Below, one piece after another: positions 48,832-55,323 of a stretch of 60,043 nucleotides of DNA (within the stretch, counting starts at the first letter, position 1; each line of letters opens with the position of its first letter). The translations under genes and the position numbers were made by a program. Origin of the DNA: a virus (Duplodnaviria; Caudoviricetes). Below the pieces are notes generated by a model, which saw nothing but the letters and a program-made list of their open reading frames with translations, made no database searches and had not been told where the DNA came from. The stretch spans positions 1 through 60,043 of IMG/VR virus record IMGVR_UViG_3300036818_000078; one strand, 5' to 3'.

Positions 48832-49833
48832 ATGGGGGATGCATTAAAACGTTGCAATGTATGTTGTAGAGAGTACCCTGCTACAACAGAGTACTTTCAC
48901 AGAACTAAGGCTATGAGAGATGGGTTTTTCAAGCAGTGCAAAGAATGCAGAGGCAAAGCAGCCAAGTCGTATCACGCAAACCTTGCGCAACGTGAGTCAA
49001 TCCCATTGACTGATGTGCCTTCTGAAAAACGGTGCAATAAGTGCCACAATAGTTTTCCTTTGACAACAGACTTTTTTAACCGCAATAAAACCAATAAAAA
49101 CGGTTTTGCTAATCAGTGTAGGAGTTGCACAGGTAAGGAGAGAAGAAGAAACGCTGTTGTGAGATATAGCAGAGAAGGGTACAAGCTATGTAAGGAATGC
49201 GAAAAAGAGTACCCCGCTACTACTGAATACTTTTACCGTGATAAAAAGGGAAGAGAAGGGTTGCACGGCTACTGCAAAGGGTGCCAAAGCGCAAAGAGAA
49301 CTTTTACTCTTCCTGATGATACTACAGGAATGCATAAATACTGCACGAAGTGTCAAAGAGAACTACCTGCTACTACGGAGTACTTTCATCGCAATAATAT
49401 TGGAAAAGGAGGTATCAACGGTGAATGTAAGGCATGTAAAAAAGCTCATCAACAAAAACCAGAGGTAAAGAGGCGAATTTCTTCTCAAAGGCGTGTTTAT
49501 CGAAACCTCCCTGGTGTGCGAGAGCGACTGCGTGTTTACAGTCACAACAGACGTGCCATCAAGAAAGCCATCCCAGGTACTTATACCTCTGCTCAAATCC
49601 AAGATCAACTGAAGAGGCAAAAGCACAAGTGCTACTACTGTCATAAGCGGTTTCAGAAGATCAAGGATAAACATATCTACCACATAGAGCACACGTTCCC
49701 ACTCAGCAGAGTAGCAGGGACCGACATTCCTGCTAACAGCATCGACTACCTCGTGTTAGCATGTCCGCATTGCAATCACAGCAAGAGTGATAAATTCCCA
49801 TGGGAATGGGCAGAAGGTGGCAGATTGTTATAA
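48832..49833 (+). CDS. HNH endonuclease with four N-terminal zinc-binding repeats
   Basis: 4x 'CxxC..EYPATTEYF.R....G....CKxC'; C-terminal 'CYYC...HIEH.FPLSR...N...ACPHCNHSK'. Confidence 0.9.
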   Translation: MGDALKRCNVCCREYPATTEYFHRTKAMRDGFFKQCKECRGKAAKSYHANLAQRESIPLTDVPSEKRCNKCHNSFPLTTDFFNRNKTNKNGFANQCRSCTGKERRRNAVVRYSREGYKLCKECEKEYPATTEYFYRDKKGREGLHGYCKGCQSAKRTFTLPDDTTGMHKYCTKCQRELPATTEYFHRNNIGKGGINGECKACKKAHQQKPEVKRRISSQRRVYRNLPGVRERLRVYSHNRRAIKKAIPGTYTSAQIQDQLKRQKHKCYYCHKRFQKIKDKHIYHIEHTFPLSRVAGTDIPANSIDYLVLACPHCNHSKSDKFPWEWAEGGRLL

Positions 49834-52109: not shown

Positions 52110-52481
52110 GTGATGAGTGAGAATATTTACCCATTTCAACATAGCCCGTATGAAGACGGTCCTTCACCTGTCAACCCGTTCAAAGATGTCCTTGACATGA
52201 TACGGGATTCACAAGTGAAGGCTGCGAGAATAGTGGAAGCTACAAAGGAGCAAGAGGCAGAGATTATAGAAGCAGCAACACAGAAAGAGGAGTTACACAA
52301 GCATGATTACCGCGTGACAGGCGGGATGTATTTCGCTATACGATACTGCATAAGATGTGGTAAGTCGTGGCGATTGCCACTACGCTATGACGACTTTGAA
52401 GATCCTCCTGTAGCAGAGTGGGAGACGATTAGCGAGCCTGTAGACTTGAGTGTGCCTATTTTACCAGACTATGAGGGATAG
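52110..52481 (+). CDS. Hypothetical protein with H..CxxC motif
   Basis: GAGGAG RBS; 'HKHDY...YCIRCG'. Confidence 0.55.
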   Translation: MMSENIYPFQHSPYEDGPSPVNPFKDVLDMIRDSQVKAARIVEATKEQEAEIIEAATQKEELHKHDYRVTGGMYFAIRYCIRCGKSWRLPLRYDDFEDPPVAEWETISEPVDLSVPILPDYEG

Positions 52482-52484
52482 ACA

Positions 52485-52742
52485 ATGAGCGAAGATATCA
52501 CACAAGATCCTGAGTATCGCAAAGGATACGAGAGAGGCATTGAAGCATACAGAAGAGAACAGTCTCTAGAGGTGAAAGGGTTTCATGCTGGCTACAACGC
52601 ACTCAAGACACCTAAGACTGTAGAGAGTAAAGCTGTCCCTGACAACTCAGAACGAGGCTGGCCGTCTCTCTCAACTCTTGAGGAGAGAATTGACGAACTT
52701 GAGAAGAGACTGAATAAGCTTGAGTGGTACACTGAGGAATAG
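52485..52742 (+). CDS. Hypothetical protein
   Basis: 'YRKGYERG', 'GFHAGY' repeats and C-terminal coiled coil. Confidence 0.55.
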   Translation: MSEDITQDPEYRKGYERGIEAYRREQSLEVKGFHAGYNALKTPKTVESKAVPDNSERGWPSLSTLEERIDELEKRLNKLEWYTEE

Positions 52743-52748
52743 AGCCGT

Positions 52749-53405
52749 ATGAATGATCCATGGCAGGCTATCAGAGAGCATAATGCTCAATTGCGTCAAT
52801 CCCAATCTAGCAGATTGCAGCAAGTCTCCGATGCGCAGGACCTCAAAAAGAAAGAATTTGAATATCAGCAGGCTATCAGAGAGCAAGCGCGGCGTGAATT
52901 GGAGCAGCGTCAAGCAGAAGCAAGGCGCATTGTAGCGCAACAAGCTACAGACCGCAAAGCTCATAATGAAGCATCTCGCAATGCCCTACTGACTCAATCT
53001 GCTCAAGATTTGAGGATTGCACACCAGAGGAGTCACGACGCACGCCTCGTAGCCAAACAGAACTTACAGGAAAGGCAACAGGTTGTGAGGAATGGCAGTC
53101 CAATTGAAACCGCATTCTTTGAGGCATGGTGTGTAGCATATCCAGATATCACGCTTATTCGTCAACATCAGGTTCTCAAGTATCGACTAGACTTTGCTCA
53201 TCTAGACACAAAAATAGCTATTGAGTTAGACGGTCATAGTTTTCATAGTAGCAGGAAAGACCGCAATAAGGACTACAAGCGACAAAGAGAGATAGAAACT
53301 TTTGGTTGGTCTTTTGTTCGGTTCACAGGCAGTGAGATATTTCAAGATGTGGGTAGCTGTGTAGAGATAGTGGCAAAGCGCATTAAAGAGCATATGGCGA
53401 GGTAG
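52749..53405 (+). CDS. DUF559/Vsr-like endonuclease with N-terminal coiled coil
   Basis: 'SPIE...QHQV.KYRLDFA.....IAIELDG..FH.....D..RQREIE..GW..VRFTGSEI'. Confidence 0.85.
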   Translation: MNDPWQAIREHNAQLRQSQSSRLQQVSDAQDLKKKEFEYQQAIREQARRELEQRQAEARRIVAQQATDRKAHNEASRNALLTQSAQDLRIAHQRSHDARLVAKQNLQERQQVVRNGSPIETAFFEAWCVAYPDITLIRQHQVLKYRLDFAHLDTKIAIELDGHSFHSSRKDRNKDYKRQREIETFGWSFVRFTGSEIFQDVGSCVEIVAKRIKEHMAR

Positions 53406-53903
53406 GCATGGTCAGGTGAGGTAGCGTCAGGTTCGGTCTGGTTAGGTTTGGAGCAGCATGGTCAAGCTAGGTTTGGCAAGGTAGGCGGGGCACGGTAGGC
53501 ATGGTGTGGATTGGTACGTTGTTGCGGGGTGATGCGTGGCTTGTCTAGGTTAGGTATTGCAAGGTTGGAGCGGTGTGCCAAGGTGAGGAAAGGTCAGGAC
53601 TGGTGAGGTTTGGTACGGCGTGTCTGGGTGAGGATTGGCATGGTTGGTGAGGTTGGGTTGGGCTAGGCAGTGCGCGGTGATGCTAGGCCCGGTAGCGCAT
53701 GGCCCGGTAGCGCATGGCAAGGTTCGGACTGGTTCGGTGCGATTCGGTTCGGCATGGTCCTGTAAGGCATGGTTGGCAAGGTATCGTATAGCGCGGTACG
53801 GTTCGGTATTGCAAGGTATGGCGCAGCATGGTAGGCAAGGGCAGGCACGGTAAGGTTGGGCGGGGCACGGACAGGTATGGCAAGGTACGGTATGGCAAGG
53901 TTT
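53396..53903 (+). repeat. GGY-NN pentamer array (candidate non-coding guide RNA array, VIPR-like)
   Basis: Manual parse: 96 pentamers plus 7 GGTW tetramers; 67 pentamers begin exactly GGY and the other 29 differ by one base; last two bases vary freely; ends in a T-rich tract. Confidence 0.85.
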
Positions 53904-53941
53904 TATTTGTTTTCGATTAGTTCAAGGAGAGGTCTAACAGC

Positions 53942-54493
53942 ATGATACGTTCATTTCAGGTTCAAATCACAGGGATTACACCAGTGATCATTAATCGCTT
54001 TCATGAAGAGGCTGCTGAAGAGGCAACTAGTAGTATGAGGTCAGCACGCAAAGAGCGACCAGCCCCACAAGAAGACGCGGCTAGCCGTCTCTATCAGAAT
54101 GGGAATGGCCCGTTCTTGCCTGCTGAGAACGTCAGACAAAGCATCATTGAAGCTGCAAAACGTTTCAAGCTTGGGAGACGGGCTGCTACAACCGACGTAG
54201 CTGCAGCGGTATTCATATCACCTTTTGAGCTTCCACTAGAAGGTGAGTGGCATGTGGACAGTAGAGCAGTCGTTATTCCTGCAACGGGTGGGCGTATCTT
54301 GCGACACAGGCCGATGTTCGATGAATGGAGTGTCAAATTTCAGCTCCAAATTGACACAGACACAGGCATTGATGAGAAGCTTATAAAAGAGGTATTAGGG
54401 AGTGCAGGAAAGCTAGTAGGAATAGGTGATTTTAGACCAGCTCGCAAGGGACCGTATGGCAGATTTAGTATAGACTCTTGGGAGCAAGAGTAG
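53942..54493 (+). CDS. Stand-alone RAMP/Cas7-like protein (Vipr-like)
   Basis: AAGGAGAGG RBS; RAMP-like 'ITGITPVII', 'PFLPAENVRQSIIEAA', and terminal Gly-rich loop 'GIGDFRP..KGPYGRF'; no other cas genes in the genome. Confidence 0.7.
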   Translation: MIRSFQVQITGITPVIINRFHEEAAEEATSSMRSARKERPAPQEDAASRLYQNGNGPFLPAENVRQSIIEAAKRFKLGRRAATTDVAAAVFISPFELPLEGEWHVDSRAVVIPATGGRILRHRPMFDEWSVKFQLQIDTDTGIDEKLIKEVLGSAGKLVGIGDFRPARKGPYGRFSIDSWEQE

Positions 54494-54783
54494 AGATGAA
54501 ACGCTTTGGGCTACCCACATACCCAATAGCTGATGGTATGCTCGTCAGGAAAAGACCACCTGACGAGCTACAGTGGCTTATAGACCACGGTTTCTTCGTG
54601 TCCTGGAGTTATCATCACCTCATTGTAAAGCTTCCTAATGGGATTTACAGGCTTTACCGCAACACGCAGCCAGTAGGACAAATTGAAGCGGAAGCAGCCA
54701 CGCTTGACGAACTGATACGGGACAACAGCGTGCCGATTGCGATGTACCAATGGCATGATGACAGAGGTGAGGATTTGGCATGA
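54478..54783 (+). CDS. Hypothetical protein (start probably ATG 54496)
   Basis: ORF directly downstream of the RAMP-like gene. Confidence 0.5.
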   Translation: MGARVEMKRFGLPTYPIADGMLVRKRPPDELQWLIDHGFFVSWSYHHLIVKLPNGIYRLYRNTQPVGQIEAEAATLDELIRDNSVPIAMYQWHDDRGEDLA

Positions 54784-54905
54784 GTGAGCCTGTAAAAGAC
54801 GCCTTCCTCATCCTCTTCATCATTATCCTCACTGCCGTGTTTATCTACCTTATCATGATGTCAGGTGCTCTAGAGCCATATGATGATGAAAGTGAGAATG
54901 AATGA

Positions 54906-55160
54906 ATGATAGGACGATTGAAGCGCGTAGTGAGAAGACACTATATCATCACCTATTTAGTAGCAGTTCTCATCATCATAGGTCAATTCTGCTGTCAAGC
55001 CTATCTCGTATTCACAAATAGCGATAAGACGCTCTACCTTGCTATTCCAACTCTTCTTACAGCTTGGATACTAGCAGCAGCAGAGCAAATAAGGACATTA
55101 GAGACGATAAGAAGAGAAGCGTACCTTGCTGCGATTAGGAGGATCAATAGGCTCAACTAG
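54906..55160 (+). CDS. Small two-TM membrane protein
   Basis: Two hydrophobic segments. Confidence 0.55.
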   Translation: MIGRLKRVVRRHYIITYLVAVLIIIGQFCCQAYLVFTNSDKTLYLAIPTLLTAWILAAAEQIRTLETIRREAYLAAIRRINRLN

Positions 55161-55323
55161 GGAAGCATCTCAAGTATATCCGTATGCATGAGATAGAAGG
55201 CAGAATTGGCAGATTGAATGCATGAGATGAGATTGAAAGTATGGGAATTTGACAAACTGCTGAGATGTGAGCTATACTGATGTCTGTAAATTTGCGTTTA
55301 ACGACACCAGAAAGGGAAAAGCT

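Follow-up and report, generated by a model that had tools for sequence, protein, structure and literature searches.

The stretch analysed here (hereafter the window) covers positions 1 to 60,043 of the IMG/VR virus record IMGVR_UViG_3300036818_000078 (Caudoviricetes), and at 53396-53903 (+) it carries a 508-nt tandem array of GGYNN pentamers upstream of a gene for a 183-aa protein. We read this region, with a probability of roughly 80%, as the guide-RNA array of a phage-borne Viral Interference Programmable Repeat (VIPR; 10.64898/2026.04.26.720920) system with a “staggered”, tail-less architecture. The first accounts of VIPR, an RNA-guided form of DNA recognition proposed to pre-date CRISPR, are 2026 preprints that appeared from April to October of that year and cover its discovery (10.64898/2026.04.26.720920), its structure by cryo-electron microscopy (cryo-EM; 10.64898/2026.04.26.720927) and competition (10.64898/2026.10.15.759431). 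According to these VIPR preprints, Vipr is a small RAMP-like phage protein with an RRM core, a thumb and a helical bundle, and the vrRNAs are guide RNAs of 9-16 GGYNN (YNNGG) repeats; each repeat is bound by one Vipr protomer that sequesters GGY, while NN pairs with double-stranded DNA (dsDNA) and every third target base is skipped, and the outcome is transcriptional silencing of competing phages and satellites. Both the system and the staggered architecture are already in print as preprints; the window locus adds a new member, carried by a soil phage.

A pentamer array interrupted by one-base register slips

We parsed the array with a custom seven-state hidden Markov model (HMM) of the GGYNN positions, in which 4-nt and 6-nt units carry an equal penalty. 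The parse comprises 103 units, namely 96 pentamers and seven GGTA/GGTT 4-mers with zero 6-mers, and its limits coincide with those set by an earlier inspection of the letters alone (the sequence-only reading). That inspection had reported slips of the 5-nt register at seven GGTA/GGTT tetramers; the HMM recovered the same seven, and its pentamer runs of 1, 15, 2, 13, 15, 25, 11 and 14 match the unit counts of 15, 2, 13, 15, 25, 11 and 14 reported then. The 50 GGT sites of the array pass through the phases 1>0>4>3>2>1>0>4, which makes seven steps, every one of them -1 and none up. The autocorrelation of G falls from 0.57 at lag 5 through 0.52 at lag 10 to 0.48 at lag 15, and among the 96 pentamers G occupies position 1 in 84% and position 2 in 95%, with C or T at position 3 in 91%. 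With a GC skew of about +0.5, the region is G-rich on the strand of the vipr gene, and it is the sole array of this kind in the 60-kb record. In terms of the VIPR repeat definition (tandem GGYNN/YNNGG, at least 4 units, flanking vipr), the array lies on the same strand as the gene and ends 38 nt upstream of it.

The slips have a characteristic context. A strict NGCAH pentamer stands before 6/7 of the 4-mers as compared with 14/88 other pentamers (Fisher p 2.7e-4), so that the earlier claim of an NGCAH-type pentamer before every tetramer holds strictly for all but the first, which follows GGCGA. GG comes directly after all 7/7 4-mers. The 3' end of the array, GGCAA-GGTTT, is a motif identical in kind to the internal borders, and an in-phase GGCAA-GGTTC occupies pentamers 15-16 of the 25-pentamer run; both had been noticed before and were found again. 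This longest run (unit 5) is possibly two units, the border between them having lost its slip. It also contains a 15-nt block in 2.2 tandem copies (53686-53718), and in a relative, L125, the first long unit has a block of ~8 pentamers in nearly three copies (2491-2595); such tandem blocks within units are hints that units grow through local duplication. Guides of 60-80 nt had been proposed from the letters; unit sizes in the window are typically 65-75 nt plus the 4-mer, over a full range of 10-125 nt.

Other kinds of element were looked for in the same region. A protein-coding reading of the array was ruled out by the 5-nt period, with only short overlapping open reading frames (ORFs) on both strands. 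A search of Rfam with 52500-55000 gave no match at E up to 1. The array RNA does not fold better than shuffled versions (z +1.58; 98/100 shuffles fold at least as well), and no RNA structure separating the units emerged from this folding test. Tandem Repeats Finder returned short period-10 and period-15 rows only, the degenerate 5-nt array not being listed.

The adjoining protein and its link to the arrays

The product of the 183-aa ORF matches phrog_4652 (E 1.4e-22) and no Pfam family, and among 542 candidates it has 193 database relatives at E <=0.001, for which the only name given is “hypothetical protein”. We built an alignment and profile from 40 of the 120 listed relatives. Against the PDB, the sole hit of this profile at E up to 10 was 36pp_D, “SUSP1 Vipr protein” (E 4.8e-13), which the single sequence reaches as well (E 2.3e-9). 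With tblastn, Felixounavirus homologues are found at 97% query coverage, and the window Vipr is ~27-28% identical to the Felixounavirus Vipr. In the SUSP1 system, D177, W178 and R179 of the G-loop together with R138 of the thumb hold G1, G2 and Y3 (10.64898/2026.04.26.720927). In an alignment with the VpaE1 homologue, R123, D163, F164 and R165 of the window protein align with the SUSP1-family residues R138, D177, W178 and R179, and among the 40 homologues R123, D163 and R165 do not vary, with conservation of at least 90% at F164; since these positions coincide with the cryo-EM contact residues, the window protein retains the residues that hold GGY. No confident placement of an H17 equivalent was obtained in the alignment.

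The protein and the arrays go together. In a first viral scan, 5/5 homologue loci had 5-nt G-periodic arrays adjoining the gene on its strand. The HMM, run over all parsed loci, placed 158 arrays of at least 8 units on the vipr strand as against 15 on the opposite one, and on both strands of five whole virus records, 411 kb in all, 8/8 arrays of at least 8 units adjoin vipr. The 15 opposite-strand arrays include those of L014, L019, L021, L024 and L069 (minus); some overlap plus-strand arrays, as at ~3590-3860 of L024, where arrays lie on both strands, and they could be convergent or palindromic arrangements. The Felixounavirus VpaE1 locus, a type II representative of the SUSP1 family, served as a control and was parsed into five separate tracts of 13-19 pentamers with zero slips, each followed by a similar ~40-nt tail. 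Judged from these comparisons, the locus very probably belongs to the VIPR family. The earlier suggestion that the array encodes several guides is in keeping with this assignment, as the vrRNAs of VIPR are described as guide RNAs (10.64898/2026.04.26.720920).

Slips as probable guide borders in related arrays

For the border tests we used 11 non-redundant loci (the window, L001, L002, L003, L119, L120, L122, L123, L125, L127 and L129; Vipr 61-70% identical to that of the window), which hold 17 arrays and 1502 pentamers; L004, L006-L008, L118, L121, L124, L126 and L128 were left out as duplicates. Slips in this clade are strongly directional, with 85 four-mers versus 6 six-mers (binomial p 6e-19). 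They are also evenly spaced: the median length of the 76 internal runs is 16 pentamers, with a coefficient of variation of 0.42; 6 of the runs lie below 8 pentamers, and 0/5000 random placements were as regular on either measure. Random placement of the tetramers in homologous arrays, which the sequence-only reading had named as the outcome speaking against its proposal, was thus not what we found; the slips are regularly spaced and the nearest sub-clade carries the same NGCAH-GGTW. In this sub-clade of six loci other than the window, NGCAH stands before 22/29 four-mers as opposed to 65/466 other pentamers (p 1.2e-12), and GG follows 29/29 of them. The slip logo reads GGCAt-GGTt-GG with little information outside it. 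A border at the very start of the array (1-2 pentamers and then a 4-mer) is present in 9/16 clade arrays that have a slip. The longest among the arrays examined, a single array of 483 units (2.4 kb) at 3618-6010 of L129, has 25 four-mers and 3 six-mers.

Sister arrays are mosaics at the level of whole units. L120 and L122 are 98% identical until 4 nt past the first slip and then unrelated, with two versus three units, before 93% identity resumes 5 nt ahead of a slip and continues through vipr. Between L125 and L127 the shared units, identical or nearly so, begin 5, 5 and 7 nt ahead of slips, one ends 3 nt ahead of a slip, and the units next to them differ. The homology breakpoints between these sister arrays fall within 7 nt of slips.

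We consider it very likely that the slips are borders between guide units, and the proposal of the sequence-only reading that the tetramers are processing or boundary signals is supported as regards boundaries: they are regular, bear a motif and behave as guide borders in the clade arrays. For the motif itself the same proposal needs to be narrowed. It is enriched before slips, but its letters alone cannot mark a border, because NGCAH-GGTW is about as frequent in phase; what marks the border is the break of register.

The border motif at array ends of distant relatives

Outside the clade we compared 131 distinct arrays from 68 loci. In 97/131 of them, at least one of the last four units is an NGCAW pentamer; such pentamers account for 153/519 terminal units versus 489/3300 interior ones (p 5e-15). 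The strict form GCAW-GGWW starts in the last 15 nt of 26/131 arrays (24/68 loci), where 4.7% would be expected from interior stretches of that length (p 4e-10); a start within the first 15 nt is seen in only 1/131. Because GCAW-GGWW and NGCAW are enriched at the array ends of such distant relatives, we take the border motif to be what usually marks the 3' end of a vrRNA tract in the Vipr family.

Longer unit-closing elements were found in several of these loci. At 3645-4601 of L065, the 12-nt GGCAAGGTTCGN recurs every 8-9 pentamers with a +2 shift; L048 has ~20-nt elements at 89-657 and 1579-1900, in which GGCAAGGTTCC is followed by an A/T-rich stretch; and L068 (3590-4167) and L136 (2820-3144) have tails of ~25-40 nt that are hairpin-like by eye. 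All of these elements open with GGCA(A/T)GG, which points to a gradation of tail length across the Vipr clades. The window clade looks like one in which the vrRNAs are joined head to tail and the tail is reduced to nothing.

Comparison with described VIPR architectures and with CRISPR

The legend of Fig. S18 in the discovery preprint mentions “staggered” arrays with vrRNAs overlapping by 1 nt and “boundaries of individual processed vrRNAs” (10.64898/2026.04.26.720920). We assign the window array to this architecture because GGTW plus GG equals a pentamer GGTWG that shares its last G with the next GGYNN. On our interpretation of the legend, successive units overlap by 1 nt in one continuous array in both cases, here with seven -1 steps and no +1. 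The GGCAW-GGTW border motif, its identity with the terminal signature, the spacing of ~16 pentamers and the exchange of units were not found in the main texts of the VIPR preprints, whose supplements may cover them.

Type II VIPR, described from Escherichia phage SUSP1 and a P. fulva prophage, resembles the window in having a small RAMP-like protein with a thumb arginine and a G-loop (GDFRP in the window, GDWRP in type II), in the GGYNN tandem repeats that flank the gene on its strand, in being phage-borne and in units of ~9-16 or more repeats. Type II, as described in the preprints, has separate tracts that are each closed by a conserved ~40-nt tail with a pseudoknot, whereas the window has one continuous 103-unit tract with -1 slips as borders; a structured 3' tail of ~40 nt was not found in the window, where only 4-mers lie between units. 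The neighbouring gene differs as well, being the DNA-binding vap in type II and a DUF559-type nuclease gene in the window.

The CRISPR RNA (crRNA) of Class 1 CRISPR with its Cas7 backbone shares with VIPR a RAMP filament on a guide RNA and periodic thumb insertions, and shares with the window array several guides per array and conserved elements at their borders. In contrast, its period is 6 nt rather than the 5 nt of the window, the conserved bases of the window are interleaved within the guide, and VIPR reads its target with gaps (two bases read, one skipped). In the window, neither 23-50-nt direct repeats nor a Cas6-type hairpin nor adaptation genes are in view. Tandem Repeats Finder and Pfam, the latter on 9 neighbouring ORFs, likewise revealed neither ~23-50-nt direct repeats with unique spacers nor nearby cas genes. 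The comparison of the tetramers with CRISPR repeats made in the sequence-only reading is loose, as the GGY bases of VIPR lie interleaved within the guide and target reading falls to NN only, with one base skipped.

Proposed mechanism and alternatives

The array is probably co-transcribed with both neighbours, the DUF559-type nuclease gene on its upstream side and vipr on its downstream side; a scan of 52400-55300 for promoters and terminators found no such site in or beside it. Vipr protomers would bind one per GGYNN, hold GGY and expose NN to read dsDNA with one skipped base per pair; this mode of binding and gapped reading has been established in the SUSP1 and P. fulva systems (VIPR preprints), and we infer it for the window. 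At each GGCAW-GGTW|GG junction the register would fall by one base. A GGY-phased filament could not continue across a 4-nt unit, and the transcript would therefore be split into seven units, five of 11-15 pentamers, a presumably vestigial one of 2 and one of 25. As the filament would stop at the 4-nt unit, each unit is expected to form its own complex of ~11-16 protomers reading ~33-48 bp. The 9-nt motif would be the conserved 3'-terminal signature of the vrRNA standing alone, to which other clades add a 12- to 40-nt tail, and the junctions may be trimmed by host RNases. Transcription, physical cutting at the junctions and the register break itself as separator of the units are all things that we infer; physical cutting, taken on its own, we regard as an even bet. 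More tentatively, and with odds that we would place below even, the clade may have reduced the tail to the 9-nt signature (GGCAW-GGTW) plus a register break, with filament phasing instead of a ribozyme, hairpin or dedicated nuclease separating the guides, with the 9-mer serving as microhomology for swaps of whole guide cassettes between related phages, and with the conserved DUF559-type nuclease of the adjoining gene coupled to a phage-borne VIPR.

Several observations weigh against reading the array as a set of slip-bordered guides. The evidence from mosaics consists of six breakpoints in three array pairs, and the shared 9-nt motif itself draws alignment ends toward slips. In the window, 6 occurrences of NGCAH-GGTW are slipped and 6 are in phase; the corresponding counts for the sub-clade are 22 and 20. 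The divergent members L001, L002, L003 and L129 have NGCAH before 8/48 slips only, and the slips of L003 stand in a different context, GGA(A/T/C) and then GCTNN. Runs of 2, 25, 32, 36 and 37 pentamers misfit a picture of one unit per run. Small-RNA sequencing in the discovery preprint confirmed the ribozyme-interspersed and single-vrRNA architectures only, the staggered one not being among them (10.64898/2026.04.26.720920), and although the wording “1 nt overlapping” fits a -1 slip, equating the two is our own interpretation of the Fig. S18 legend text. The sequencing runs listed for the window include no RNA and hence give no 5' or 3' RNA ends; those that contain it are 2 soil-metagenome DNA runs, whose contigs match the window identically in seven short pieces and show neither variants nor joints.

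A last point of this kind comes from searches for natural targets under the NNx rule, in which the NN dinucleotides are compared with DNA and one base is skipped, with skip-0, skip-2 and shuffled guides as controls: in ~1 Mb of phage sequence none was found above controls. Guides of the window and L001-L005 gave 2 segments at score 14 in 622 kb of loci versus 1-5 in shuffles, and 36 guides gave top fractions of 0.78 in five whole records (411 kb), equal to the skip-0, skip-2 and shuffled controls. When 77 clade guides were run against 998 kb in 12-repeat windows, two matches reached 21/24 and nine 20/24, the control maximum being 20. The best full-unit match is that of the last L122 unit on the ORF just downstream of vipr (27/36 in L120, 26/36 on its own copy), and the last unit of L120 matches the same ORF at 23/32 and 22/32; at the coordinates concerned (L120 3422-3475, L122 1334-1387) the skipped base is the third codon position. 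Lying below the 80% match threshold of the discovery preprint (10.64898/2026.04.26.720920), these matches may be due to chance or to weak self-regulation and are a weak lead.

Among the alternatives, an uncut VIPR transcript fares best, in which one long RNA is kept and the slips are hinges or phase breaks between tethered guides. It would agree with the finding of no processing enzyme, ribozyme or hairpin at the junctions and with the place of the staggered architecture outside those confirmed by small-RNA sequencing (10.64898/2026.04.26.720920). We nevertheless judge it unlikely in view of the “individual processed vrRNAs” of the Fig. S18 legend, the described vrRNA length of <100 nt (10.64898/2026.04.26.720920) and the stand-alone vrRNA arrays of relatives, which end with the same terminal motif. 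We hold it very improbable that the 4-mers are no more than neutral scars of deletions in a degenerate repeat, with no border role: the imperfect G at position 1 and the occurrence of the flanking motif in phase speak for it, and against it stand the excess of four-mers over six-mers, the regular spacing, the slip context conserved across independent loci and the homology breakpoints at slips. Least probable of all is that the region is not a guide array and instead either a DNA-level element, such as a former of G-quadruplexes or R-loops or a site of packaging or replication, or a CRISPR-like array whose spacers are contiguous. For it speak the strong one-strand G skew and the fact that GGNNN runs could in principle give two-tier quadruplexes. 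Against it, every related locus has its arrays tied tightly and specifically to a Vipr homologue on the same strand, Tandem Repeats Finder gave no direct repeats separated by spacers, and a Pfam scan of 9 neighbouring proteins revealed no Cas domain.

If the array is indeed a staggered vrRNA array, the locus bears on how VIPR guides are delimited, which in the preprints consulted is known so far only for arrays with tails or ribozymes. Together with its relatives it provides a clean collection of arrays that lack tails, with 85 slip borders across the 11 loci, and it makes a question testable, namely whether a one-base register break plus a 9-nt motif partitions a transcript into separate guide complexes. 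For annotation, slip-delimited units can be converted to target patterns for what the phage silences. The letters alone had led the first inspection to rediscover a real system; the surprise to a specialist is modest, as the system and its architecture are in print.

Neighbouring genes and feature coordinates

The 218-aa ORF upstream of the array matches PF18741 (E 1.2e-13) and PF04480 (E 5.3e-12) of Pfam. The array begins within the last codons of this ORF, the stop codon of which falls in the first border motif. Homologues were found by tblastn directly upstream of the array in 12 relative loci, 7 of them non-redundant (L001, L002, L119, L120, L122, L125 and L127, besides the window) and all from the close clade, and this DUF559 / REase_MTES_1575-type gene may be a candidate VIPR accessory (vap) gene of the clade. 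The discovery preprint limits predicted nucleases to the host-defence VIPR types III and V (10.64898/2026.04.26.720920), whereas the element in the window is phage-borne and yet adjoins a DUF559-type nuclease gene. Coordinates are given in Table 1.

Table 1. Positions of the putative vrRNA array, its units and borders, and the flanking features in the window.
Feature	Position	Strand	Remark
Upstream ORF, 218 aa	52749..53405	+	C-terminal DUF559 / REase_MTES_1575 endonuclease-like domain
Putative vrRNA array, 103 units	53396..53903	+	HMM parse
Border 1, GGTA	53401..53404	+	single leading pentamer GGCGA before it
Unit 1, 15 pentamers	53405..53479	+	last pentamer GGCAA
Border 2, GGTA	53480..53483	+	
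Unit 2, 2 pentamers	53484..53493	+	probably vestigial; internal runs of <8 pentamers in the clade: 6/76
Border 3, GGTA	53494..53497	+	
Unit 3, 13 pentamers	53498..53562	+	last pentamer TGCAA
Border 4, GGTT	53563..53566	+	
Unit 4, 15 pentamers	53567..53641	+	last pentamer GGCAT
Border 5, GGTT	53642..53645	+	
Unit 5, 25 pentamers	53646..53770	+	in-phase GGCAA-GGTTC at 53716-53725
Border 6, GGTT	53771..53774	+	
Unit 6, 11 pentamers	53775..53829	+	last pentamer AGCAT
Border 7, GGTA	53830..53833	+	
Unit 7, 14 pentamers	53834..53903	+	closes with GGCAA-GGTTT
T-rich spacer	53904..53941	+	Shine-Dalgarno-like AAGGAGAGG at 53924-53932; no structured tail
vipr gene, 183-aa RAMP-like protein	53942..54493	+	phrog_4652; PDB 36pp_D

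Elsewhere in the record, the TerL protein has matches to actinophage terminases at 37% identity or less only. A 333-aa ORF at 48832-49833 has several Cys-x2-Cys repeats followed by a conserved TTEYF(H/Y)R stretch, and its C-terminal part, with paired Cys and His, is HNH-like by eye.

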